DNA of 64,000 nt, taken from the NCBI GenBank assembly GCA_963771075.1, contig CAVYSE010000002.1, positions 1-64,000 on the forward strand, in the 5' to 3' direction. The stretch is from a candidate division FCPU426 bacterium (GTDB taxonomy: Bacteria; Oederibacteriota; Muellerivitia; Muellerivitales; Muellerivitaceae). The notes beneath the pieces are model-generated. The model ran no database searches. It was given only the letters and a program-made list of their open reading frames with translations, and was not told where the DNA came from. Of this stretch, positions 1 through 64,000 are shown piece by piece (positions within the stretch are counted from its first letter, which is position 1; each line of letters opens with the position of its first letter). The translations under genes and the position numbers were made by a program.

Positions 1-424
1 CTGGTAGCGAGCCTGGCATCCAGCTTGTTTTGTTTGAGGGCTTCCGAAAGGATCGGCCTGACTTTTCCGGTAATCCAACCCGGTAGGCTTTTCCTGATTA
101 TGTCGGACCATTTTTTCGCCTTGCTGGCGGTGGCGGGAATACCGTTTTCACCGGCCTTAATTACAGGAATAGAATTCGCGGATGTCGCAGGTCAGGTCGA
201 TATCCTCTGAGAACCGGTTGATGGCGTTATAGGCTTTGGAAAGCGACGTTCCGCCCTTGAAAGTAAGTGCCGGGGCGATTGCAGATTGGAAAAGCGCCGA
301 ATAGGGTCCAGACAACCCAAACGTCCTTTTCCAGCAGGTAGGCCGGGCTTCCTATCCTTGCCGAGGCGGCTTGCAGGGCTTCCTTGCAATCCGACCTTGA
401 AAGGGAAAAGTAGGACTCAGCCAA
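1..424 (-). pseudogene. AbiEii/AbiGii-type nucleotidyltransferase toxin (type IV TA), 5' part; two apparent frameshifts; runs off the window
   Basis: LLEKDVWVVWTL, then in a shifted frame FKGGTSLSKAYNAINRFSEDIDLT; overlaps the stop of the upstream DUF6088 gene; paralogous to 6691-7755. Confidence 0.85.
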
Positions 425-48322: not shown

Positions 48323-49349
48323 AACATAGGGGCCAGGCCTACATTTTACACTTTATAAGCTTCTTGGCGAACGCCCGGTCTCTTGCCATCTTCGCCTTGA
48401 TCCTCGCCCATTGGTTCCCCACCGCCGAAAACCCTACCCCCATCCTTTTCCCGATCTCTTTTAAGCTCAATCCCGATTCTTTTTTCAACAAGTAAATCGC
48501 CACTTCCCTCGCTTCACGCCTTCTCCCGCCTGATTTAAGTATCTCTTCCGGCTTTTCCCCATACACTTCACCGATCTTCTCCAATACCTTTGCCGGTTCC
48601 TTTTTCACCACATGCTTCTGGTACTTGGGCACATCCAGGTTTCGGTGTTTTCGACCTACCTCATGCACCTTGCCCAAAAACTCTTCTTTTCCCAGGTAAA
48701 CCTGTGAAGAAAGCTCGTCCCAAGGCGATTCTTTCTTGCCCATCCCCTCCGCCACAAAACGCTTATAGCTGTCTTGGGCCTGCTTTTCCGTTTTTCCGAA
48801 CTGCCCCAAGATCCAGTCCCTTTCCAGCCAGGTTTCGGCTTTGTCCATCCCAGCCGTCCCCCGGTAACTGCTCCATTTCCAATCCCCAGGCTTCTTGACC
48901 ATTCGCGCCCTTACTGGGTTTAACACCACATACCGGCACAACTCTTTCAAATAGCTTTCCTTCTCCACCACAATCGCCTTGAACCGCCCTTGAAAAAGAT
49001 GGCCTGAACGGTAATGTTTCTTGTTGAACCGCTGGGTGTAAATCGCATTCAGGTGCTTCATGGCCAAGGATAGGTTGGCTTCAGGAGTTTCCAGTAGGAG
49101 GTGGTAATGGTTATCCATCAGCACCCAGGCATGGCAAACCACCTGGTTCTCCTCGATCATTTCACCCAATATTCTTATAAACATCCACCGGTCGGCGTCA
49201 TCCATGACGATTTTTCGCCGCTCATTCCCCCGGGAAGTAACGTGGTACACGGCCCCTTCATAGTGTATCCGTTTGGGTCTTGGCATGGAGACATCTTACA
49301 ACCTACGATGCCCCTGTAAAGTGTAATATGTAGGCCTGGCCCCTTTGTT
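48323..49349 (-). mobile_element. RAYT-type element bounded by 33-bp inverted repeats
   Basis: AACATAGGGGCCAGGCCTACATTTTACACTTTA (48323-48355) vs TAAAGTGTAATATGTAGGCCTGGCCCCTTTGTT (49317-49349), 2 mismatches. Confidence 0.8.
48339..49286 (-). CDS. REP-associated tyrosine (Y1/HUH) transposase with C-terminal DnaA-like HTH
   Basis: YHVTSRGN, LMDNHYHLL (HUH), GHLFQGRF, RYVVLNPVRA, WKWSSY; C-terminal SLKEIGKRMG. Confidence 0.92.
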   Translation of the reverse strand: MPRPKRIHYEGAVYHVTSRGNERRKIVMDDADRWMFIRILGEMIEENQVVCHAWVLMDNHYHLLLETPEANLSLAMKHLNAIYTQRFNKKHYRSGHLFQGRFKAIVVEKESYLKELCRYVVLNPVRARMVKKPGDWKWSSYRGTAGMDKAETWLERDWILGQFGKTEKQAQDSYKRFVAEGMGKKESPWDELSSQVYLGKEEFLGKVHEVGRKHRNLDVPKYQKHVVKKEPAKVLEKIGEVYGEKPEEILKSGGRRREAREVAIYLLKKESGLSLKEIGKRMGVGFSAVGNQWARIKAKMARDRAFAKKLIKCKM

Positions 49350-52107: not shown

Positions 52108-52776
52108 ATGGTTCGACAAAAAGCAATCGTCTCCTGGTCCAGCGGGAAAGACAGCGCCTGGGCGCTTCATCAAGCAAGGCTTGATCCCGGTTTGGAGGTC
52201 GTCGGGCTCCTCACGACGGTCACCCAAGACTTCCACCGGGTCTCCATGCACGGGGTTCGGGAGGAACTGTTGGAAGCCCAGGCGCGTTCGCTGGGCCTCC
52301 CCCTGGTCAAAGTCCCAATCCCCTACCCCTGCCCGAACGAAACATATGAAGCGGCCATGTCCACAGCCCTGAGTAAGGCCCGTGAGAATGGCGTGACGCG
52401 CATTGTCTTCGGCGACCTTTACTTGGGGGACGTCCGAAAATATAGGGAAGCAAAACTGGAAGGGTCCGGCTTCGAAGGCGTTTGGCCCCTTTGGCTCAAG
52501 GACACCCGGACCCTCTCCCGCCAGATGGTGGAAGCGGGCCTCAAGGCCACGGTTGCGTGCCTGGACCCCAAACACCTGTCCCGATCCTTCGCGGGGCGCG
52601 AATACGACGTCCGACTGCTTCAAGACCTTCCCAGGGAAGTGGACCCCTGCGCGGAAAACGGCGAATTCCACACCTTCGCCTGGGGCGGGCCCATGTTCTC
52701 AAAACCCGTTTCTTTTCGGGTCGGGGAAACCGTCGAGCGGGACGGGTTTGTCTTCACGGATTTATTACCCGCTTAA
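52108..52776 (+). CDS. PP-loop ATP-binding protein (MJ0570/diphthine-ammonia ligase-like)
   Basis: SWSSGKDS, FGDLYL, DPCAENGEFHTF. Confidence 0.93.
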   Translation: MVRQKAIVSWSSGKDSAWALHQARLDPGLEVVGLLTTVTQDFHRVSMHGVREELLEAQARSLGLPLVKVPIPYPCPNETYEAAMSTALSKARENGVTRIVFGDLYLGDVRKYREAKLEGSGFEGVWPLWLKDTRTLSRQMVEAGLKATVACLDPKHLSRSFAGREYDVRLLQDLPREVDPCAENGEFHTFAWGGPMFSKPVSFRVGETVERDGFVFTDLLPA

Positions 52777-52804: not shown

Positions 52805-54781
52805 GCAGAGTAGAGCGCTGGCGCGTATGCCTTAGAGTACGGTGGCGAATCCAACCCTTTCGGATTGGGCCTCAGTCCGGCTCTCATCACCACGTTTCCA
52901 GCGCCCCCTCATCAAACCGTACGTGACCTTTTCGATCATACGGCTTTCCGACAACCTTTCAACCGGCAGCATTCAAGGCAAAAGCTGGAATCCAGTTCAA
53001 ACCAAGGCGTTTCACTTCCTCGATCGACCATGTTCGTCCTTCCCAGGCGTACTTATGCCTCCGAAACAAAGTCAGCCTTTCGAGTACGTAAAATTGAAGC
53101 TTGGAAAAGTATGGCTGGCTGTCCCCAATTCGGAAATAGTTGGCCCACCCCCTTAACACCGGGTTCAAAGCCTTCGCTACATCCTCCATTGGAGATAAGA
53201 GCCGCTCTCGGCCCGCCGTCATCTGCTTCACTTTCTCGGCGATTTTCTTCATGGCCTTCCGGCTCGGCCAGCTCAGGCAACAGGTCTTACCCAATCCTAC
53301 CACCGGCATACCTACTCGAAAGTGGAACCCAAGGAAGTCAAACCCTTCCTTCCCAGGCCCCATTTCCACCAGCCGTGTCTTTTCGGGGTGCAGTTCAAGC
53401 CCTAGTCGTCCCATCAATTCCTTGATGACTTCCAGGCTCTTTTCCGCATGGGCTTGGCTTCCGCACAACACCACAAAATCGTCGGCGTAGCGCACCAGCC
53501 TACCCAGTTTCCTGTGCCTCTTATTCCAAACCTTGTCCAGCAAGTGAAGGTAAACATTGGATAACAGCGGTGAGATCACCCCGCCTTGCGGTGTCCCTCG
53601 GAGAGTCGGCGTAAGCCTTCCTTCCTCAAACACACCCGCCTTCAGCCACCCTCGGATCAGTTTCAAAACCTTCCGGTCACTGATCCTCTGGCGCACCAGC
53701 ACCATCAGTTTGTCGTGGTCGATGGAATCGAAATACTTCCGAATATCTCCATCCACCACCCATCTGTACCCGCCATTGATCCACTTCTTGATCTCCCGGT
53801 GGGCCTGCTGGGCTCCGCGTTTTGGCCGAAATCCAAACGAGCCTTCCAGAAAGTCCGCCTCAAAGATGGGTTCCACCACCTTCCGGCAAGCCGCTTGAAC
53901 TACCCGATCCCGAATTACCGGGATTCCCAACGGTCTCTTGCTTCCATCAGGCTTGGGTATTTCCACTCGTCTCACAGGTTTAGGCAGATACTTCCCAGCT
54001 TTGAGTTCTTCCTGGATGCCCTTCAGGAATGGAATAATTCCCACCTTCTCTTCGATCCATTCCAGCGTTTCCCCGTCCACTCCTCCTTGGCCTTTATTAG
54101 CCTTCACCTGTTTCCATGCCGCTGTCAGGACATCCCATCGGGTCATCCTGTCATGCAGTACATGAAATCTCCGGCTTGGGCTCCTCTTGGCCGCTCGGTA
54201 TAGCGCCCTTTGAAGGGTTCGCGCCTTGTCTTCGGAGTTGTTGGCCCTTTGGGGCATGCTCCAGCGCCTCCCTTTTGAAGGTTGCTTGGTTGAAGCAGGG
54301 GTCCTTCCCTCCAGGTGGTTTTGTTGTCCACCCTTCACAGGTATTGTGACCCCCTCCGACTTCCTCCCGCCCTTGCCCCTTTTCGGTTTTAGCCTTATAG
54401 CGGCAAGTCTTTTGGCGGGTAGGATCTCCCAGGTTGCTTGCAAAGCCTTTCCAGCATTCCGTTCCCCATACGCCGGAGGACTTGCCCCGCTTGCTCCAGA
54501 TTCTTCAGCGGGATCGTGGCCTTCGCCGGTAGACACGCGGCTCGGCATCCTCTTGCACCTTTCGGTGTCCCATTCACGACGCGGCAGGATTCACTTGATG
54601 TTGCGGACTGCTAGATTGTTCCCTCACTGAATGAGGTTTATGACCCCGTTTCGGGCAGAACCTCTCGGTCCTACGCCGGGGGCTGACTTCCAGGCTCTCT
54701 GGCGATTACCTGGTCAGGATTTGGGCTGGCCCTCTTCGGCCTACTCCCTCACCTGCTGGCTCTACAAACCTTCGCTGGCAC
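52805..54781 (-). mobile_element. Group II intron (RT-encoding) inserted next to array site 1
   Basis: 5' GTGCC; domain V AGCCGTATGATCGAAAAGGTCACGTACGGTTT; 3' ...CTCTACTCTGC; boundaries defined by identity with the second copy (3' end uncertain by 1 nt). Confidence 0.92.
52959..54257 (-). CDS. ltrA: Group II intron reverse transcriptase/maturase, no endonuclease domain
   Basis: IPKPDGSKRPLGIP, SFGFRP, GTPQGGVISPLLSN, RYADD, FDFLG, LRGWANYF; ATG at 54257. Confidence 0.96.
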   Translation of the reverse strand: MPQRANNSEDKARTLQRALYRAAKRSPSRRFHVLHDRMTRWDVLTAAWKQVKANKGQGGVDGETLEWIEEKVGIIPFLKGIQEELKAGKYLPKPVRRVEIPKPDGSKRPLGIPVIRDRVVQAACRKVVEPIFEADFLEGSFGFRPKRGAQQAHREIKKWINGGYRWVVDGDIRKYFDSIDHDKLMVLVRQRISDRKVLKLIRGWLKAGVFEEGRLTPTLRGTPQGGVISPLLSNVYLHLLDKVWNKRHRKLGRLVRYADDFVVLCGSQAHAEKSLEVIKELMGRLGLELHPEKTRLVEMGPGKEGFDFLGFHFRVGMPVVGLGKTCCLSWPSRKAMKKIAEKVKQMTAGRERLLSPMEDVAKALNPVLRGWANYFRIGDSQPYFSKLQFYVLERLTLFRRHKYAWEGRTWSIEEVKRLGLNWIPAFALNAAG

Positions 54782-54783
54782 GA

Positions 54784-54811
54784 TGTCCACGATGGGTCCC
54801 TATCGTGGCCT
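54784..54811 (+). repeat. 28-bp array site 1
   Basis: TGTCCACGATG GGTCCC TATCGTGGCCT. Confidence 0.9.
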
Positions 54812-54819
54812 TATACATA

Positions 54820-55089
54820 TCATTCAAATAAATCCGAATGTGTTCCGGTTCTTTCAAAAATGATTTCGCTACCCGAGAGCTTGTAAATCAAAAGCCAATC
54901 AGGCTCCAAATGGCACTCCCAGCGATCCTTGTAGTTCCCTGAGAGTTTATGATTCCGAAATCGAGGTTCTAAAACGCTCTGAGATATCAAACAACTGGCG
55001 ACATCCTTGAACTTTTCGACAAGTTTGCCACGCCGAATCATCAATTTAAGATCTTTCTGAAATTGGTTGGTGTAGGAAGGGATAAGCAT
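54820..55089 (-). CDS. yafQ: YafQ-family toxin
   Basis: FQKDLK...NHKLSGNY...ECHLEPDWLLIY...RTGTHSDLF. Confidence 0.93.
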   Translation of the reverse strand: MLIPSYTNQFQKDLKLMIRRGKLVEKFKDVASCLISQSVLEPRFRNHKLSGNYKDRWECHLEPDWLLIYKLSGSEIIFERTGTHSDLFE

Positions 55090-55349
55090 CAGATGCCGAG
55101 TTTATTGAACATGTCCTCGGCATTCTTAGTTCGGACCAGATGCCGGCCTTTATCCGTAGACTTGAAAACGGCCTTCGTTTTCGCATTCGGTAGGGTGACA
55201 TCGAAAGGCAGCCCGCGCCTCAAAAGGATTTGACTGTAATAAATCGAGATGGCCTGGCTGGCTGTAAGCCCCAATTGGTGTAACAACTTTTCCGTATCGG
55301 CCTTCAAATGCGGTTCTAACCGCGCGCGGACTGTCGCTTCTTTTGCCAT
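55089..55349 (-). CDS. dinJ: RelB/DinJ-family antitoxin
   Basis: TVRARLEPHLK...LGLTASQAI...GLPFDV.LPN; start/stop overlap with yafQ. Confidence 0.92.
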   Translation of the reverse strand: MAKEATVRARLEPHLKADTEKLLHQLGLTASQAISIYYSQILLRRGLPFDVTLPNAKTKAVFKSTDKGRHLVRTKNAEDMFNKLGI

Positions 55350-55416
55350 ATAGATCCCCCTTTAAGGAACTAAAGGAAGTGTAGCTCGTTTGGGCTACAT
55401 TTACAAGCCACTTCAT

Positions 55417-55444
55417 TGTTCACGATGGGTCCCCGTCGTGGACA
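55417..55444 (+). repeat. 28-bp array site 2
   Basis: TGTTCACGATG GGTCCC CGTCGTGGACA. Confidence 0.92.
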
Positions 55445-55651
55445 ATTTCAATTATGATTGCGGCCATAGTATTGCAAGTAGCCGTATCCGATCTGCCCCC
55501 TTCATTGGCCTTAAAAGGGTTTGACCAGGCCCTGCATGTGCACCAACAATATTCGAGAATGGAGTTTTCTTGCGTGACTCTGCCCGCCTAGCCCCTTCTT
55601 TAGCGGCTCAGTAACGCGTTTCAAACAACGGGCCTTTTCAAAATTCCAACC

Positions 55652-56665
55652 TTATTTCCCGATCACCTCGACTTGAATCTCAAATACCTTATGTTGCCTC
55701 TCGTTTCTCCAATTGGTTTCCCAAACCGCCACGGTACTCTTCCCCGGTTTCACGGCCTTCAGCCGGTCGAAGTAATATCCTCTGCTAATCCGCACAGACG
55801 ACCCTGTGTATTTCTCGGCCGTTGTTTCCGCCACCGATTTCCCCTGAATCGTCAATTTATAAAAAGGCCCCCTATTGCTGCCGGATCGACCTTCCCGCAG
55901 GAAAAAAACGTCGTTCAGGGCCACTTTGTTCACCGGATAAAAATTAAATTCCGTTCGGGCTATGCGTGTATTACCTGAACCATCCACTGCGTCGACCTCA
56001 AGGATGTTTTTACCGGGTGAAGGAGCCGTTTCGATCGAACCGCTCAAGTGAAAAGCATCCGGACCCTCGGGGGAACATTTCGGATCGACCGGGAGACCAT
56101 TGATTAAGACCCGTACACTGGAGGGGACCAAGTAATACCCATCCCAAAGGACCGGGTCGATTTTGGGGGCGAACAAACCTTCTTGGTCATCCGGCGGTCC
56201 AACAATGAAAACCGCCGACAGGGGCCGGTAATCGAATGAAGTTTCAGCCGACCACTCGCCTACACGGATTTTCACTTTCTTGGTACCGGGTGCTCCGGGA
56301 TAAATATTAAAATAAAATTCATAATCTCTCAGTTGCCCCGCTTGGCTGTCACCCCGGCCCCCGAGCCTAAACTCCGCTTTATTACCGTTGATCCACAACT
56401 TGGCCTCACCCCGCGATAGGAGGTCCATTATTTCGCCGTCTGTCTTGTAGTCGTCTTTGGGCAAGGGCACGATGAACCTTAGGGTGGCGGTGCCTGCGTT
56501 TATCGGGTTTAAGTAATTCCAGTCCGAGGCAGAACTTGGGTTCGGCAAAGATACTTCGATCCGCGGTTTGGACATATCCAAGTTTGCGCCGAAACATATG
56601 GTTGCGATCAGCATTCCCAAAAAAAGGACGACATTAGCCACTACATTGAAAACCGTGCTTTTCAT
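55652..56665 (-). CDS. Secreted/exported hypothetical protein with Ig-like domains
   Basis: N-terminal hydrophobic signal; GKNILEVDAVDGSGN. Confidence 0.75.
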   Translation of the reverse strand: MKSTVFNVVANVVLFLGMLIATICFGANLDMSKPRIEVSLPNPSSASDWNYLNPINAGTATLRFIVPLPKDDYKTDGEIMDLLSRGEAKLWINGNKAEFRLGGRGDSQAGQLRDYEFYFNIYPGAPGTKKVKIRVGEWSAETSFDYRPLSAVFIVGPPDDQEGLFAPKIDPVLWDGYYLVPSSVRVLINGLPVDPKCSPEGPDAFHLSGSIETAPSPGKNILEVDAVDGSGNTRIARTEFNFYPVNKVALNDVFFLREGRSGSNRGPFYKLTIQGKSVAETTAEKYTGSSVRISRGYYFDRLKAVKPGKSTVAVWETNWRNERQHKVFEIQVEVIGK

Positions 56666-56718
56666 AGACCTTCCCCATTGTTTTTCCCATTTATTAAGTC
56701 ACACCCTATGCGTTTACC

Positions 56719-56746
56719 TGTCCACAAAGGGTCCCCGTCGTGGACA
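56719..56746 (+). repeat. 28-bp array site 3
   Basis: TGTCCACAAAG GGTCCC CGTCGTGGACA. Confidence 0.92.
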
Positions 56747-56786
56747 AAAAACCGAAGACCAGTAGTACCCCCGCCTATTTTTTACC

Positions 56787-57197
56787 CTAAGTCCTTTTCT
56801 TTTTTAACCAAACCCCAAAAAAACATCCAATCGTCCAGGGTGTAATTACAAGAAACAACCAAAATAAAAAGAAATATAAAATACCGTCGCTAAACATTCC
56901 GCTGAGGGCAATAGCCCAAAAAATGATGCTGATAAAAATCAACGGCCAAATAAATTTTCGAACATCCAAACCAATTCTAGAACTCTGGAGAGTACCAGCC
57001 AGAAACATAGAAATAAAAGGGCCAAAAAATAACTCAATGTATAACCAAAGCGGAAAAGGTCGTCCGTGAGAATAAGGAAGATACTTCTCTAATATATCTT
57101 GTAAAAGATTTGCTATCAGAACAACAGCTATAAAAGAACCCAAGACAGTTCCAATGAAAATAGGCACTGTGTTAATAATTTCTTTACGATTATTCAA
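56787..57197 (-). CDS. 4-TM membrane protein
   Basis: Four hydrophobic segments; AT-rich. Confidence 0.7.
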   Translation of the reverse strand: MNNRKEIINTVPIFIGTVLGSFIAVVLIANLLQDILEKYLPYSHGRPFPLWLYIELFFGPFISMFLAGTLQSSRIGLDVRKFIWPLIFISIIFWAIALSGMFSDGILYFFLFWLFLVITPWTIGCFFGVWLKKKRT

Positions 57198-57252
57198 AAT
57201 TTATTCCTCTTGCGAAGGGCGTAACTTATTAGATTTCAATACAAGAAATCAT

Positions 57253-58048
57253 GCAGAGTAGAGCACTGGCGCGGTGGTGTACAGGTCGGCCCTTGGCTGT
57301 ATCCGCCGTTTCCGGCTTCGTGCCCGTTTAGGGACTCCCATCACTTCGTTTCCAGCGCCCCCTCGTCAAACCGTACGTGACCTTTTCGATCATACGGCTT
57401 TCCGACAACCTTTCCTCCGGCGGCTTTACAGGTTCGACTTCCCCCTTGGCCACTCGGTATAGTGCCTGTTATCGATGGTCCCGCGCTTTGGTACTACAGA
57501 GTTGTTGGCCCTTTTGGGGCATGCTCCAGCGCCTACCTTCTTTGAGACACATGGTTGAAGCAGGGGTCCTTCCCTCAGGGTGGTTTTGTTGTCCACCCCT
57601 TCATCGGTACTGTGACCCCCTCCGACTTCCTCCCACCCTTGCCTCTTTTCGGTTTTAGCCTTATAGCGGCAAGTCTTTTGGCGGGTAGGATCTCCCAGCT
57701 TGCTTGCATAGCCTTTCCAACATTCCGTTCCCCATACTCCGGAGGACTTGCCCCGCTTGCTACCAGATTCTTCAGCGGGATCGTGGCCTTCGCCAGTAGA
57801 CACGCGGCTCGGCATCCCCTTGCACCTTTCGGTGTCCCATTCACGAAGCGGCAGGATTCACTTGATGTTGCGGACTGCTGGATTGTTCCCTCACTAAATG
57901 AGGTTTATGACCCCGTTTCGGGCAGAACCTCTCGGTCCTACGCCGGGGGCTGACTTCCAGGCTCTCTGGCGATTACCTGGTCAGGATTTGGGCTGGCCCT
58001 CTTCGGCCTACTCCCTCACCTGCTGGCTCTACAAACCTTCGCTGGCAC
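57253..58048 (-). mobile_element. ORF-less group II intron (~796 nt) inserted next to array site 4
   Basis: Near-identical domains I-III and V to 52805-54781; domain IV reduced to a short remnant; same junction (+ strand GGCAC|GATGTCCACGATGGGTCCC). Confidence 0.92.
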
Positions 58049-58050
58049 GA

Positions 58051-58078
58051 TGTCCACGATGGGTCCCCATCGTGGACA
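58051..58078 (+). repeat. 28-bp array site 4 (perfect arms)
   Basis: TGTCCACGATG GGTCCC CATCGTGGACA. Confidence 0.93.
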
Positions 58079-58086
58079 CCCTAGGT

Positions 58087-58524
58087 TCAATGCAATTCAC
58101 CGATTACAACTTCAACATCATCATTTTTCATATATCTAGTAAGGTATTGCCAACCACCGCCCAGGGGTTCTAATCCACTGGACAACCCGTAAGTATCAAG
58201 CCACCCACTTGAATCTTTTTCCCAAATATAACAATTGGATCTTCCATCGATTTTCACTTTGACTAAATCTTTAGAATTCTTTTTGAGCGTGTTTTTCAGA
58301 ACAAACGAATCTATTTCATTCAGTTCGAAATCGCTGTTCCCATTTAAATCCATTTGAAAATTAACATTCTTTGATAAGTTTAAAAATAAACTTTTTACAG
58401 TTTTTAACTGTTCCAAGTTCTCAATAACAATATTTATCTTTTCTTGTTTATCTGAACTTCTTCGAAGAATCTTAATACTCATTACGGCTCTCCAAACCAG
58501 ATCATTTTTAATGCCGCTCAACAC
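58087..58524 (-). CDS. Hypothetical protein (AT-rich module)
   Basis: ORF nearly fills the space between sites 4 and 5; start may be the ATG at 58482. Confidence 0.7.
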   Translation of the reverse strand: MLSGIKNDLVWRAVMSIKILRRSSDKQEKINIVIENLEQLKTVKSLFLNLSKNVNFQMDLNGNSDFELNEIDSFVLKNTLKKNSKDLVKVKIDGRSNCYIWEKDSSGWLDTYGLSSGLEPLGGGWQYLTRYMKNDDVEVVIGELH

Positions 58525-58545
58525 CTAGTCGAACTGGGATTACCT

Positions 58546-58573
58546 TGTTCACGATGGGTCCCCGTAGTGGACA
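58546..58573 (+). repeat. 28-bp array site 5
   Basis: TGTTCACGATG GGTCCC CGTAGTGGACA. Confidence 0.92.
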
Positions 58574-58592
58574 GGCAACTTTCATCACAGGT

Positions 58593-58826
58593 TTATAAAT
58601 GAACCCCCCAGAGGTGCGCGTAATAAAACATGAGTAAGAGTATCAAAGCGGCGCAAAAATACAAAATAACCATCACCCAAAAGGCCATTACATCTTTATC
58701 CTTCAAGATTGCCGAACCTGTATAGCCCATTAAAGTCGGAGCCTTACCAGTCATTAAAGAGAAAATAATTAAAAAAACGAAAAGTAATCCCCCGAAAAGA
58801 AAAAACCAAGGATTAAGTCGATGCAT
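58593..58826 (-). CDS. Small 2-TM membrane protein
   Basis: 77 aa, AAGGA RBS, fills the space between sites 5 and 6. Confidence 0.7.
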   Translation of the reverse strand: MHRLNPWFFLFGGLLFVFLIIFSLMTGKAPTLMGYTGSAILKDKDVMAFWVMVILYFCAALILLLMFYYAHLWGVHL

Positions 58827-58871
58827 TAATAGTTTCCTTTATTCAACAATGAACTTCAGGGGTTCTTTTTC

Positions 58872-58899
58872 TGTCCACGAAGGCTCCCGGTCGTAGAGA
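58872..58899 (+). repeat. 28-bp array site 6 (degenerate)
   Basis: TGTCCACGAAG GCTCCC GGTCGTAGAGA. Confidence 0.7.
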
Positions 58900-58958
58900 A
58901 GTCTAATGAACAAACTCTTGGGATTTACAATTGCTTTAACGCCTGGGGTTTTTCCATT

Positions 58959-60239
58959 TCAATGCAAAACGATGATTTTAAGGATTTTCACCGTCGAGTT
59001 ACTTCCGTCCACCGCCTTGACCCGAATGTAGTAAAGACCGTTAGAAAGTGTATTACCCGTCAGGCCGGTCAGATTCCAATGAACCGTAGCGTTTTCGTTA
59101 ATGGTTTGCGACCCACCCTCGATTTTACGGAAAGACACCGTGAAGACATCCCAGGCGAGGGCGGTACCAGGAGGGGCTTGCACGTCAAAGTTAACCCCTT
59201 CCGTGTTTTTAACGGGGTTGGGGTAAGGAAGGCCGATCAAAACGCTCGTGGCGTTGATGGTCGGGGTCATTTCCGGGGTAGAAGTGTTTGACGGCGTCGA
59301 GGTGGGTGTGCAGGTGTTTCCCATGGCGTCCATGCAGGGGACCTGGGTGTATACCGGAGTGGGGGTCACGGTGGGCGTGGGAGTCCCGGTGGGGCTGGGG
59401 GTGGGGGAGCAGGCGTTAACGGACACGGAAAAACTGTTGCTGGTGAAGGGTACGGCGCCGTTTTGGATCTCGATTCCGGCCTCCACCGCGTAGAGGTACC
59501 AGGAGGGTTGGATGTAACCCCGTGATATGGCGTCCCCGATGAAGGCTTTGATGTCCAGGCCGGTCACGGAGGTCGTTTGGGCGTTGGAAAGGTAACCGAT
59601 ATAGTTCCAGGTGACGCTTCCGGAACCCTGGTTCCACTGCCAGACTTCCCAAGGCATGCCGCTGATCGTGGCGGAGCCCTGGTCGTATTCCCATCCGTGG
59701 GAGGTGTATTTGAGCCAGATCATCATTTCCGCGCCGCCGCTGAACCCGGCGGCCCCGCAAGTGTTGTCCGGGCAGAACCAAATGTCGTAGGCCACGTCCC
59801 AGACCCCGGTTTGGGAAACCGAGAAGTTCCAGTCGCTGGTCACGCAGGTCAGGGTGCTGATTGCGGCCGGAAGGGCGCAGGGCGGGGGGCTGGAACCGCC
59901 GAAGGCGCTTCCGTACATGATGTCCGGATAGGAACCCACCGTGTTGGCGCCGCAGGTGGGCCCCTGGGTCACGCTGAAGGCCCCCGTCGTTGTGTCGATA
60001 TTCATACATTGGGTGCCGGGGCAGCTGCCATTATTCCAATAATCGGTCTGCACCATATAGGGCCCCATACTAATGGGTACACTCTGGAAGAGCGCACAGG
60101 TGTTGACGATGACATCCCCTTCCACGGGACGGGTGCCCCCCCATAGGGCAATGGCCATCAAGGCAGAGAGATATAAGAACGGTTTGGGGGAGAAAAGGAA
60201 TTTTGGCCGTCTCAAAGCGTGATTATATCCAAAAAACAT
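58959..60239 (-). CDS. GH12 endoglucanase/xyloglucanase with PT linker and FlgD/T9SS-CTD-like C-terminus
   Basis: SYPDIMYG, WDVAYDIW, GAEMMIWL, AVEAGIEI; TPTPSPTGTPTP linker; PYPNPVK...SNGLYYIRV. Confidence 0.88.
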   Translation of the reverse strand: MFFGYNHALRRPKFLFSPKPFLYLSALMAIALWGGTRPVEGDVIVNTCALFQSVPISMGPYMVQTDYWNNGSCPGTQCMNIDTTTGAFSVTQGPTCGANTVGSYPDIMYGSAFGGSSPPPCALPAAISTLTCVTSDWNFSVSQTGVWDVAYDIWFCPDNTCGAAGFSGGAEMMIWLKYTSHGWEYDQGSATISGMPWEVWQWNQGSGSVTWNYIGYLSNAQTTSVTGLDIKAFIGDAISRGYIQPSWYLYAVEAGIEIQNGAVPFTSNSFSVSVNACSPTPSPTGTPTPTVTPTPVYTQVPCMDAMGNTCTPTSTPSNTSTPEMTPTINATSVLIGLPYPNPVKNTEGVNFDVQAPPGTALAWDVFTVSFRKIEGGSQTINENATVHWNLTGLTGNTLSNGLYYIRVKAVDGSNSTVKILKIIVLH

Positions 60240-60348
60240 TCATGCGCCTCTCGGGCACCCGAATTCATAAACGGGTTTTTCGCCGGGTTCCGTGATGCCC
60301 TATCTTTAAGTATCCCATTGGGAATATTAAAAAACATATATTTTTACT

Positions 60349-60376
60349 TGTCTTATTCGGGTCCCCAACGAGGACA
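60349..60376 (+). repeat. 28-bp array site 7 (divergent arms, intact core)
   Basis: TGTCTTATTCG GGTCCC CAACGAGGACA. Confidence 0.7.
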
Positions 60377-60471
60377 GCTCTAATTCCCTTTCATTGGCTC
60401 AAAGTGAATTTCGTCCTCAAGAAGAATCTTCACACAAATGGAGAATGTATCGCTTTCGGCATCCTGCTGGT

Positions 60472-60858
60472 TCACCAGATCACTTTCAGTCCATGGAATG
60501 CGCGGATACGTTTGTCCTTGCTGAGAATAGGGCACCCATACTCTTTGGCAGTGGCCACGAGGATACGATCCGCGGGATCTCCGTGAAATTCACCCTCTAA
60601 CCGGGTGCTCTTCACGGCGATAGCAGGCGATAATGGGATCAATTGGATTTTTGGGAGCTTTAAAGCTTGGTCCACCCATACCTCAACATCCCGATCAAGT
60701 TCTAAGCGCTTTTTCGCCACCAACATGCCTACTTCCCAACAGCTAATGGCATTAACGTAAATGCTGTCGGTAGCGCGAATGGCTTTGGAAGCCTTGGAGG
60801 AGAGTTGGGGAGAGCCCGTTGCCCACCAAATCCAGGCGTGTGTGTCGAGAAGAATCAC
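60472..60858 (-). CDS. vapC: VapC (PIN) toxin
   Basis: ILLDTHAWIWW, AISCWEV, HGDPADRILVATA, SKD; GTG start overlaps the antitoxin stop. Confidence 0.92.
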   Translation of the reverse strand: MILLDTHAWIWWATGSPQLSSKASKAIRATDSIYVNAISCWEVGMLVAKKRLELDRDVEVWVDQALKLPKIQLIPLSPAIAVKSTRLEGEFHGDPADRILVATAKEYGCPILSKDKRIRAFHGLKVIW

Positions 60859-61082
60859 TGACCCGCTTCCCAAACGTCCTCAATTGGCGAAAGAATGTCC
60901 TTTTCACTCAAGACGCTTCCGTGAAGCGAAGTACCGTGTTTGCCTTTCTCCTTCAAAACCGGGCCGATTTTAGCCACTGGAATTCCCCGTTTGGTCACTA
61001 CGATAGTCTCGTGGGCTCTGCTCACTTCATCCAGTAGCGACAGGCATTTGGCCTTGAATTCACCGGCGGCGATGGTTTTCAT
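60855..61082 (-). CDS. Phd/YefM antitoxin
   Basis: MKTIAAGEFKAKCLSLLDEV...VVTKRGIPVAK. Confidence 0.92.
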   Translation of the reverse strand: MKTIAAGEFKAKCLSLLDEVSRAHETIVVTKRGIPVAKIGPVLKEKGKHGTSLHGSVLSEKDILSPIEDVWEAGQ

Positions 61083-61240
61083 AAAATCTCCTTTGTGACC
61101 ACTTATCATGGTCATGTTCCCACGGGAGAAAGAAGAAGTCAAGCCGACCCCTATTCGCAATGCTTGGAGGCGCAATGGAACCGGATAGGGGGATATGGGG
61201 ACATAAAACGAAATAATTTGAAGGGAGCCCTAATTTCTTT

Positions 61241-61609
61241 TTAACGCGCCGTGCGGGTTTTAACGCCGAGTGAGCGGCTGACGGCCCATAAGGCCTTATC
61301 CCGAGTCCAAAATTCACATTGATTCGAGTAACAGGAAAACAATAAATGAGCGTCCACCCAATTAATGCCTTTACCGTTGAGGCGGTGCTTCTCAACCCAG
61401 TCCAAGACTTCCGGATTTAAAGCGGGATACAGGAGGGGCAGTAATTGGAGGTCATGCAGGAATTGGCTCCTGTTTTTTAAATGTCCCAGGGCCAGTTCCC
61501 CAATGATAAAGGGGTGGGTGAGGGCTTCATCCTTTTCCAAAAGGGAAATGAGAAACGCATTCGGGGAATGGAGGTGGTCGACCCACACCGAAGTGTCGAC
61601 CAGCATCAC
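61241..61609 (-). CDS. vapC: VapC (PIN) toxin
   Basis: LVDTSVWVDHL, HPFIIGELALG, GINWVDAHLL, WTRDK. Confidence 0.92.
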   Translation of the reverse strand: MMLVDTSVWVDHLHSPNAFLISLLEKDEALTHPFIIGELALGHLKNRSQFLHDLQLLPLLYPALNPEVLDWVEKHRLNGKGINWVDAHLLFSCYSNQCEFWTRDKALWAVSRSLGVKTRTAR

Positions 61610-61806
61610 GCTTTAGCGGCTCGCCGCCTGCGGGAAGGAGCGGAAGCGCGGGGATCGGTCCCCCCCATGGCCGCAAGCCGCTTGGCGGCTTCCCGGCGGA
61701 TGAGGGATTCAAGACCCATCCGGACAAGGGAGGTCTTTTCGGATACTCCCGTCATTTGACCGGCTTTTTTAATTAGCTGGTCATCGATGTTCAAGGTTGT
61801 TCTCAT
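61606..61806 (-). CDS. vapB: VapB (DUF2191-like) antitoxin
   Basis: MRTTLNIDDQLI...EKTSLVRMGLESLIRREAAKRLAAMGG. Confidence 0.92.
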   Translation of the reverse strand: MRTTLNIDDQLIKKAGQMTGVSEKTSLVRMGLESLIRREAAKRLAAMGGTDPRASAPSRRRRAAKA

Positions 61807-62009
61807 ATGCATCAATATGCCGTTTTGATATGCATCTGTCAAGGAGCGATTCCGGGGATCTTAAAAGCGATCAATTGGAACCGACTCGGGAAAAATCTTC
61901 TCAAATGCCGGAATGGAAGTTCAAGGATTTCATCGATAACTGCTCGCTGAAGAGAATTAAATACCCGGTGTGGAAAAGAATTACAAAATCATGTTAGGCC
62001 ACTTACAGT

Positions 62010-62037
62010 TGTTCACCCCGGGTCCCCGTCGTTGACA
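62010..62037 (+). repeat. 28-bp array site 8 (rightmost)
   Basis: TGTTCACCCCG GGTCCC CGTCGTTGACA. Confidence 0.8.
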
Positions 62038-62179: not shown

Positions 62180-64000
62180 TTAATTGGGTTTCTTTTTTTC
62201 TCCGAGATATTTCATGAGGGTGGCCGCAAGGCCCTCGACACCGCCCCCATTTCCACCGGTCACCAAAATATCCGGAACGACTTTGATATTCTTTTCCGCC
62301 AAAGCCTTTACGATATTCACGATGGCCGTGGGGGTCTGCCCGAAGGCGTCCACCTGGGCCTTAAACGCCTTGGCGTTGGCCATACCGACCGCCTCAATCT
62401 CGGCGCCCTTGGCCGTACCTGTTTGTTGGATGTAAGAGGCTTCCCCGCGCCCTTCGGCGTCACGGGCATTCGCGTTGTTGGTTTTGATGTCGATGCCCAC
62501 TTGCGATTTGGCCAATTCAGCCTGCATATCCGCCGTCCCCTTGGCCTTTTCGGTTTTGATCCTTTCCTCCTGTGCCTCGCGCTGCATGGAAAATGTGGTC
62601 TTTTCCTGGTTGGCGATCTCACGGGTGGTGAGCACCTTGACCAGGTCGCCGGGCAGAACCACGTCCTGGATATAAACGCCTTTAGTCTCGATCTTATAGT
62701 CCTTCAACTTGGCCTCGATATGGGCAAAGGCCTCCTCTTGCACCCCTTGGCGGGTTTCAATGAAGCGAATGGCGGGCATGCTTTGGATCTTGTCGCGGAA
62801 ATGGTTGCCGACCGCCGCCTGCAAGACCTCATTCACCAGGTTCTTCATGCTTCCCACGATGGAAATGACCATCGGCGCCTGGGTATCCGCCACGTGGATC
62901 TGCACCTGCAGGTCGATGGAAAAGACGAACCCTTCCCGGCTCTTGGCCACGATAGCCTTGAGGAACTGGTCCAGCTTGTGGGCCTCGGAGACCGCATCGG
63001 CCCAATTCAGGTTCAGGATATAGGTCGGGACGATCTCGGCCTGATAACAGTGGGGGTTGATGGGGTACTTGCCCGTGCGCAAGGGTTCTTCCCAGATACC
63101 GCGGTGCCCAGGCCGCACCAAGGTGCCAAACTTGAATTCCACCCCCGAGGTGTCCTCGGAGAAAAGCCCGACGTAGGACTTGATGACCGCAACCTCGCCC
63201 TGTTCCACCACCAGCATGGGCACCAAGTTGACCGACACCAGGAAGGGGTTCAGGTTGTAGGCCCCATATAGCAGGGGGTCATGCTGAAGACCGATCTTGC
63301 CGCCGTTGTCCAGGAAAGCCTGGAAATCCTGGTAGTTGTTGTGCAGGCCGTTCTTGGTACCAAGGTTAGCCTCCACCAGTTCGGCGTTCTTGGAACCGCC
63401 CTTTTCCAGCTTCTGCAGGTCGTCGAAATCCCCCAGCCGCCCCGCGATACTGCCCGGAGGCAGGGGCCCTCCCTCGTAAGTGGTGACCACGCCCACCACG
63501 TCGATGAGCTTCCCATCCTGGGTGGGCAGTGGCTCGATGCGGATGACGTTGAGCTTCTGGGGGTCCAGGCCGAAGGGCCGGTTTTTGCCGTCCGCGCCTT
63601 CCTGGATGCTCGAATGGTCGGGCATGATGGGGATGCCGTAGGTCTTGTCCTTCGTGATGACCACGAAGGCGACGGGATGCAGTGGCAAAAGGGTGCCCGG
63701 GGGCAGGACGGGCCTTTGGATGCCTTTTTGTCCGCCCGCCGTGATAAAGGTCTCCAGGTCGGTGAAATGGCCGAATTCCTTTTTGTAAACAGCCGATTTG
63801 GCCCCCACGGGAATAGCCTCACCCACTTGGGCGAAAACCACACCGATCTGTCCCGCGGGAATCTGGACCCACGGGAATTTCCGCACGCTGTAAAGGACCC
63901 AGAACTTGAGACGGATACCTGGCATGAGCATTTGGGCCTGGAATCCCGCCTCACCCTTGAAGGCGATGGGATTGTCACCCTTGAGTTTCGCGAAGGAGAA
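62180..64000 (-). CDS. SPFH/band 7 (flotillin-like) protein; start lies beyond the window end
   Basis: GQKGIQRPVLPPG, GKYPINP, SREGFVFSIDL, VYIQDV, coiled-coil tail; frame stays open to position 64000. Confidence 0.88.
   Translation of the reverse strand, partial: FSFAKLKGDNPIAFKGEAGFQAQMLMPGIRLKFWVLYSVRKFPWVQIPAGQIGVVFAQVGEAIPVGAKSAVYKKEFGHFTDLETFITAGGQKGIQRPVLPPGTLLPLHPVAFVVITKDKTYGIPIMPDHSSIQEGADGKNRPFGLDPQKLNVIRIEPLPTQDGKLIDVVGVVTTYEGGPLPPGSIAGRLGDFDDLQKLEKGGSKNAELVEANLGTKNGLHNNYQDFQAFLDNGGKIGLQHDPLLYGAYNLNPFLVSVNLVPMLVVEQGEVAVIKSYVGLFSEDTSGVEFKFGTLVRPGHRGIWEEPLRTGKYPINPHCYQAEIVPTYILNLNWADAVSEAHKLDQFLKAIVAKSREGFVFSIDLQVQIHVADTQAPMVISIVGSMKNLVNEVLQAAVGNHFRDKIQSMPAIRFIETRQGVQEEAFAHIEAKLKDYKIETKGVYIQDVVLPGDLVKVLTTREIANQEKTTFSMQREAQEERIKTEKAKGTADMQAELAKSQVGIDIKTNNANARDAEGRGEASYIQQTGTAKGAEIEAVGMANAKAFKAQVDAFGQTPTAIVNIVKALAEKNIKVVPDILVTGGNGGGVEGLAATLMKYLGEKKKPN

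Follow-up and report, generated by a model that had tools for sequence, protein, structure and literature searches.

An orphan gene-cassette array in a candidate division FCPU426 bacterium and a short serine recombinase that may move its cassettes

The array and its sites in the window

The subject of this analysis is a row of small gene modules separated by short palindromic sites in a candidate division FCPU426 bacterium (NCBI GenBank assembly GCA_963771075.1), together with a short serine recombinase, P0001, which may move these modules as cassettes. The stretch analysed, here called the window, comprises the first 64,000 nucleotides of contig CAVYSE010000002.1; G000 denotes the genome of the window, C2, C6, C8 and the like its contigs, G001 and the like other genomes, and L numbers loci. 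The array, its open reading frames (ORFs) and its immediate neighbours are laid out as follows.

52108..52776, plus strand: PP-loop ATPase gene (diphthamide synthase family), the left neighbour, convergent with the array
52805-54783 (1979 nt), minus strand: full group II intron with a reverse transcriptase (RT)/maturase ORF (stop 52959), at the left edge of site 1
54784..54811, plus strand: site 1, 13-TC-13 with a decayed right arm, its left side directly abutted by the 5' end of the group II intron
54820..55349, minus strand: cassette 1, dinJ/relB antitoxin (55089-55349) and yafQ toxin (54820-55089)
55417..55444, plus strand: site 2, at whose position 17 a public contig identical to module 1 diverges (run X1, record 3)
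55652..56665, minus strand: module 2, protein of 337 aa whose N-terminus is hydrophobic, without family match
56719..56746, plus strand: site 3
56787..57197, minus strand: module 3 ORF, 136-aa hydrophobic protein, no family match
57253-58050 (798 nt), minus strand: RT-deleted group II intron copy, matching nt 1-601 and 1811-1979 of the full intron
58051..58078, plus strand: site 4, 13/13 arm pairs; RT-deleted intron copy flush on the left
58087..58524, minus strand: module 4, 145-aa hypothetical protein, GC 0.345
58546..58573, plus strand: site 5, within which the joint of run X4 falls
58593..58826, minus strand: module 5, 77-aa membrane protein with two helices (as judged from the sequence)
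58872..58899, plus strand: site 6, degenerate, GCTCCC
58959..60239, minus strand: module 6, GH12 glycoside hydrolase with a Pro/Thr linker and a weak C-terminal domain of the type IX secretion system (T9SS) type
60349..60376, plus strand: site 7, degenerate
60472..61175, minus strand: module 7, pair one, PIN toxin (60472-60873) and Phd/YefM antitoxin (60855-61175)
61241..61842, minus strand: module 7, pair two, PIN toxin (61241-61609) and VapB (61606-61842)
62010..62037, plus strand: site 8, not the array end
62180..64000, minus strand: SPFH/Band 7 gene, ending at C2:64111, between sites 62010 and C2:64285

All eight site copies lie between ORFs and in one orientation, and every cassette gene is on the minus strand, as the original prediction, made from the letters alone, had it. 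Its gene identities also agree with ours (YafQ, RelB/DinJ, GH12 and two PIN toxins with Phd and VapB antitoxins), while four array ORFs belong to no Pfam family, PADLOC matched none of eight window proteins, and no integrase or transfer remnant was found in any window module. The core GGTCCC is indeed invariant in seven of the eight sites (the exception, at 58872, reads GCTCCC), and the quoted consensus is matched by five of them with at most two mismatches, against an expectation of 0 in 100 shuffles, the remaining three being more degenerate (8-10 of 13 arm pairs). What has to be revised is the parse of the site into 11-bp arms around a 6-bp spacer: since the GG and CC of that "spacer" belong to the palindrome, the real parse is 13-TC-13, or 14-2-14 when the flanking Y/R is counted, and the asymmetry is limited to a 2-bp centre, which is TC in 276 of 295 sites (103 from G000, 191 from sampled regions, not whole genomes, of 18 relatives, and one from a metagenome contig). 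Changes in the arms are mostly non-compensatory, as had been claimed (734 one-sided versus 57 compensatory). Two other roles considered for the site were rejected, namely that of a selected hairpin, half of the window sites (4/8) folding no better than shuffles, and that of a -35 promoter box, no -10 enrichment being seen at any spacing over 224 and 234 flanks.

Base composition does change from module to module (module GC 0.345-0.556); the tight cropping ascribed to the modules holds for some of them only, the stop-to-site distances at the eight window sites being 8, 207, 40, 8, 19, 59, 95 and 142 nt. Nor is the array delimited at 62037, as further sites lie outside the window at C2:64285 and C2:68375 (the tenth site). 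On its left, the stop of the PP-loop ATPase gene lies 28 nt from the intron insertion point, and a check of the locus between the PP-loop and SPFH genes found their homologues in 1/5 and 1/5 genomes, in unrelated contexts. Further left, 48339-49286 of the window encodes a transposase of the Y1/IS200 type that also has a helix-turn-helix resembling DnaA-C. Most Y1 matches in G000 (17 of 20) belong to this longer, lower-scoring type or are fragments of it.

Both intron copies in the window had been missed by the original prediction. The RT of the full intron scores above the TIGR04416 cut-off, and G000 holds 12 copies altogether, with non-canonical ends (5' UCGUG, 3' CUCUGC). Wherever flanking sequence is available, the 5' end directly abuts a site arm, which may be the left or the right one (11/11), and the 3' end is followed by A (11/11); the intron runs in the cassette direction at seven of 11 sites and in the opposite one at four. 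A second intron-like family also occurs at sites (L092:10850-12400 in G020; G000:C8:88546 and C3:168386-169489), one member being inserted inside a site after position 16 and another flush with an arm.

Spread of the sites and exchange of cassettes

A weight matrix built from the site finds 104 sites above 18 bits in G000 and none in three block shuffles. These form 26 clusters of 1-15 sites, nine sites being solitary; one of the 104 falls within a long ORF, and some lie between conserved genes. With at most three mismatches the pattern is present in 25 of 30 other genomes of the family and in the single same-order genome (1/1), and absent from all 67 other genomes of the phylum, the reversed-pattern controls giving 0; the exact site pattern does not occur in viral contigs. 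In the 295-site set, neighbouring sites are co-oriented in 213 of 218 cases at a median spacing of 827 nt, and in the first set of 241 sites the right arm has an ORF stop no more than 30 nt away at 123/231 sites, as compared with 34/220 for the left. The picture that the original prediction had opposed to its own, i.e. a motif occurring by the hundreds beside core genes in either orientation, is thus borne out insofar as about 100 copies exist and some adjoin conserved genes, but not insofar as the copies are clustered and co-oriented.

Cassette comparisons place the exchange inside the site. Site pairs that share one flank only number 103, whereas those sharing both flanks number four, all of them duplications within G000 (intron flanks were left out of this comparison, and the pairs share members and are not independent). 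The cassette at C28:108352-108768 of G000 is identical in G024, which belongs to another genus (400 nt compared per end), with different neighbours at both ends; mismatches in the outer left arm fall at positions 5, 7, 9, 12 and 13, and the inner arms are identical. Conversely, eight near-identical pairs sharing the left flank, which again have members in common, show no mismatch at positions 1-18 and 10 mismatches at positions 19-23. Both observations together therefore bound the exchange to positions 14-18, a window that contains TC and is not narrowed to 2 nt.

The public contig of run X1 follows module 1 without a single difference as far as site 2, position 17, beyond which it has 824 other letters. 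In run X4 an intron-bearing site is joined to module 5 (54787 to 58550), the joint falling inside the site and being ambiguous over 13 letters. Either one or four cassettes may have been lost, or an intron may have inserted independently at site 5, and the joint carries little weight by itself; short X4 joints with sides of 20-30 letters were disregarded as repeat matches. Sites flank the dinJ-yafQ module left and right in G020, G021 and G041, where its neighbours differ; in G007 one end clearly has a site. The orthologous gap before a trmL-like gene (named by likeness) is empty in G001; in G000 it contains a single site, and in G002 one more ORF accompanied by a site and a decayed half-site. 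A second gap is occupied in G000 by a cassette with a decayed site at one end and a good one at the other, neither cassette nor sites being present in 5/5 relatives. Module content is hence not fixed among relatives. As far as sequence comparison goes, the sites are shown to mark points of exchange, with arm variants that travel with the adjoining cassette, thereby supporting the earlier proposal of a cassette platform with short double-stranded sites other than attC and with breakpoints inside the site. That the cassette system is real we regard as very probable.

Some features of the wider site collection deserve separate mention. Thirteen further or overlapping "long" sites of G000 (C26:73627, 134325, 135891 and 136818; C3:148659 and 347198; C5:98258; C11:133945; and five more) carry the same 33-nt hairpin right of centre with a 4-nt CCCR duplication; it is absent from the sampled regions of relatives, a site at L175 (G014) holds a different hairpin insert, and the 33-nt element is possibly a site-targeting miniature inverted-repeat transposable element (MITE) of very small size. 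The main exception to co-orientation is at C26:138321-143694, where three cassettes are duplicated in inverted orientation on either side of an intron; this may be an assembly artefact or intron-mediated. Moreover, housekeeping-like genes lie between co-oriented sites at C3:345074-346390, C4:3672-5708 and C8:42792-44009 (HflX-like, fatty-acid or biotin genes by sequence likeness, and a glycine-oxidase-type gene of the DAO family), and capture is therefore not limited to accessory genes.

A candidate recombinase and the competing explanations

The candidate enzyme, P0001 (G000:C8:80002-80835, 277 aa), exceeds the cut-offs of PF00239 and PF07508 and of nothing else, and is the sole PF00239 match above cut-off in G000, whose one intact serine recombinase it is. 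It has no coiled coil and no zinc ribbon, PF13408 being found nowhere in G000. A site begins 14 nt past its stop and heads an array convergent with P0001; three 5'-truncated copies head three other G000 arrays, with the same distinctive left arm and different first cassettes, and all four serine-recombinase copies of this genome end 14 bp ahead of a site. Considering every short-clade copy with a readable 3' end (from the family and one metagenome contig), a site follows within 35 nt in 12 of 13, the thirteenth (G020) showing 16 nt of a site and then an RT-like insertion. No site was found at full-length loci of the family (0/9) or at genome-collection loci of longer relatives (0/79), and no palindromic array lies by longer relatives of P0001, with two isolated palindromes in 97 loci.

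A protein search retrieved 19 further clusters at 68-96% identity, all of 275-283 aa, followed by a gap down to 58%. The 20 short proteins form one branch in a quick tree of 66 of the 121 proteins over their first 300 residues (Shimodaira-Hasegawa-like approximate likelihood ratio test, SH-aLRT, 99), and the Y-R-S and DRxxR motifs are invariant in 20/20. The ratio of nonsynonymous to synonymous substitution rates (dN/dS) among five intact genes, where unsaturated, is 0.02-0.06 for the catalytic and 0.11-0.31 for the recombinase domain; given the single branch and these low values, which indicate purifying selection, the short form is maintained and is not debris. The best fold matches of a P0001 model (predicted local distance difference test, pLDDT, 67) are the SPbeta, Bxb1, phiC31 and LI integrases, NCBIfam gives weak matches below cut-off to CcrB, CcrA and XisF, and a homodimer prediction scored 0.02, which is no evidence either way. 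Since the neighbours of the intact P0001 gene in G000 include ArdC, RadC and a VirB4/TraG-like ATPase, and those of the intact gene in G044 and G020 ArdC- and RadC-like ORFs (by sequence likeness), P0001 probably travels on an element resembling an integrative and conjugative element (ICE).

The absence of the two directionality domains has a counterpart in work on LI integrase. According to PMC3783163, its zinc ribbon reads half-site positions 16-24, deletion of the zinc ribbon makes binding ~25-fold weaker, and deletion of the coiled coil renders excision promiscuous for all site pairs and abolishes integration. This fits a half-site of 13-14 bp and a single site type. Assignment of the sites to a serine enzyme is, in our judgement, probable, and the earlier proposal of a recombinase that acts in trans on the window array is supported.

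These pieces may be assembled into one mechanism, to which, as a whole, we would give a probability of roughly 0.7: the window would hold an orphan array of a family-wide cassette system moved by the short serine recombinase. The limits of a cassette would be the centres of two successive 28-30-bp sites. P0001, made at the head of another array beside ICE-type genes, would place one subunit of a dimer on each half-site, cut both sides of TC and exchange strands between any two sites, the asymmetric TC keeping the cassettes co-oriented. Directly repeated sites would excise circles, and circles would re-enter at any site; with neither zinc ribbon nor coiled coil, there would be no distinction of attP from attB and no need for a directionality factor. 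The group II intron would then be a parasite of the sites.

A number of observations weigh against this mechanism. At the sites themselves, the inner arm differs too in three of six near-identical right-sharing pairs, cassette copies of 83-90% identity often differ in their arms (weaker sets resemble random pairs), and compensatory arm changes are slightly above independence (57 versus 38 expected). No circle junction was seen in the public data, which consisted of contigs only, and the founding of an array in a gap that is site-free in 5/5 relatives is not explained. Homologues without flanking sites exist for dinJ-yafQ in G004, for module 2 in G013 (79%) and for the SPFH gene in G001, and 6/6 homologues of the GH12 module miss a site on at least one side; modules 2, GH12 and SPFH, site-free elsewhere, would be either recent captures or modules whose sites have decayed there. 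As regards the enzyme, an intact short recombinase is present in only five of 31 family genomes, with fragments in three more, as against sites in 26 of the 31, and G003 (99% complete) has sites and no recombinase match to the query. A 67% identical relative (L076:946-1857), which runs on into a zinc ribbon, is a candidate full-length sister of the short clade. Finally, since the LI deletions described above impair binding and integration, integration by the short enzyme is not explained.

The original prediction had read the site as one of tyrosine-recombinase architecture, an enzyme class that is probably wrong: the asymmetric centre spans 2 bp, serine-recombinase copies lie 14 bp from sites, and no tyrosine gene lies within 26 kb. 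Of the eight tyrosine recombinases in G000, four stand at tRNA genes (by downstream sequence), three form a trio of the recombinase-in-trio (RIT) kind (G000:C5:131804-135089) unrelated to the sites, and one is Xer-like (C6:114198-115235), with counterparts in 5/5 family genomes tested, including the site-free G012. Directly upstream of this single Xer-like gene lies a dif-like palindrome (C6:114165-114197; L247:1166-1198), which suggests a one-enzyme Xer/dif system akin to XerS/difSL. A related palindrome stands beside the Xer-like gene in G003, G004 and G012 and resembles the XerC arm given in PMC13141974. The notion that the Xer-like gene or the RIT trio serves 11-6-11 sites in trans draws on the 28-bp length common to dif/pdif sites, on the TA pairs that pdif modules carry as well (PMC13141974), on an exchange window (14-18) that falls largely inside the 6-bp spacer too, and on the presence of the Xer-like gene in 5/5 genomes, whereby it could serve orphan arrays. 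It is nonetheless highly improbable: in G000, G003, G004 and G012 the Xer-like gene has a different palindrome of its own, in G012 it exists with no cassette sites at all, no tyrosine recombinase comes closer to a site than 26 kb, and pdif spacers vary and alternate in orientation whereas the centre here is constant and the sites are direct repeats.

The main rival invokes the same enzyme and more ordinary biology, namely that the short recombinase is the integrase of an ICE-like element and that the arrays are decayed cis-mobilisable elements accreted in tandem at its attachment sites. Such accretion at att sites is known (PMC5704250), the neighbours of the intact genes in G000, G044 and G020 named above accord with it, and a co-oriented site lies 36.8 kb upstream of the intact gene in G000. 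We nevertheless hold it unlikely, as the sites are spaced at a median of 827 nt, most modules comprise a single gene or TA pair in fixed orientation, those of the window lack integrase or transfer remnants, and 26 clusters per genome exceed one attachment locus. Less likely still is a palindrome of the repetitive extragenic palindromic (REP) or MITE kind spread by an HUH transposase (a REP-associated tyrosine transposase, RAYT, or an IS200-like one); recombination, whether illegitimate or homologous, would shuffle the genes, and the serine recombinase would be a passenger. REP/RAYT systems are characterised by a hairpin, a conserved tetranucleotide foot, inverted pairs and a flanking RAYT gene. 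The ~100 intergenic copies (nine solitary, some between conserved genes), the 20 Y1 transposase matches in G000 and the 33-nt hairpin insert in 13 sites would suit this explanation; yet no inverted pairs occur (213/218 neighbours co-oriented), the tetranucleotide foot was not found, four of the eight window sites fold like shuffles and arm changes are mostly one-sided, of the 20 Y1 genes only four are found no more than 2.6 kb from a site, with none directly abutting one, and exchange maps to the site centre.

Comparison with known recombination platforms

Setting these alternatives aside, the cassette mechanism proposed here may amount, somewhat more probably than otherwise, to a second, independently evolved integron, in which a serine recombinase shorn of its directionality domains has become a general cassette shuffler acting on one symmetric 14-2-14 site, borne by ICE-like elements, serving dozens of orphan arrays in trans, carrying cassettes from genus to genus, and accompanied by site-specific intron parasites of its own. 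To our knowledge, integrons are the only well-known gene-cassette platform, and they rely on IntI and folded single-stranded attC sites. No cassette system of the present build was found in the literature, subscription papers lying outside the scope of that search. If true, a parallel platform with double-stranded 28-30-bp sites and a serine enzyme would represent convergent evolution of gene capture, one which attC-based tools would miss. A natural 277-aa integrase with neither zinc ribbon nor coiled coil would test the model that requires them for synapsis and directionality, P0001 would make a compact recombinase that uses a short site, and the arrays constitute a catalogue of accessory genes from an uncultured lineage.

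The likeness to integrons and to clusters of attC sites lacking integrases (CALINs) is considerable: co-oriented cassettes of one gene each, TA cassettes, orphan arrays that lack the enzyme and resemble integrase-less attC clusters, a distinctive first site by the recombinase gene, and group II introns that target the sites. On the other hand, IntI (TIGR02249) is above cut-off in none of the 31 family genomes (the control set held no positive), and both attC cores within 70 nt are found in 0/226 sites (shifted controls 1 and 1), in agreement with the original claim that the sites are not attC. The site is here symmetric, 28-30 bp long and exchanged at its centre, the candidate enzyme is a serine recombinase, and its gene is convergent with the cassettes, such that no promoter like the integron cassette promoter (Pc) could act from that side. 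The IIC-attC introns of integrons likewise target recombination sites (PMC7923331). Such introns carry a class C RT and insert into the attC bottom strand, opposite to the cassettes, whereas the target here is not attC and the orientation is mixed.

The pdif/dif modules of Acinetobacter, served by XerC/XerD, share with the present arrays the 28-bp sites, the small TA-rich modules and the shuffling at sites (PMC13141974); the arms described here are symmetric and unlike the XerC/XerD arms in Table 1 of that paper, and the arrays are chromosomal. Large serine integrases (LI/A118, phiC31, Bxb1, SPbeta) and CcrA/CcrB of the staphylococcal cassette chromosome (SCC) have in common with P0001 the PF00239 and PF07508 domains, and their sites share with the present ones an asymmetric central dinucleotide, but here zinc ribbon and coiled coil are lacking, the attP/attB pair is replaced by a single, symmetric type of site present in ~100 copies, and the substrate would be single-gene cassettes. 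Composite islands of ICEs, integrative and mobilisable elements (IMEs) and cis-mobilisable elements (CIMEs) also consist of tandem units between related att sites with the enzyme on a conjugative-type element (PMC5704250); they differ from the present arrays, whose single-gene units of ~0.5-2.6 kb lie in 26 clusters and are exchanged between genera. The system works like an integron, and yet it fails membership among integrons, pdif modules and phage integrases alike.

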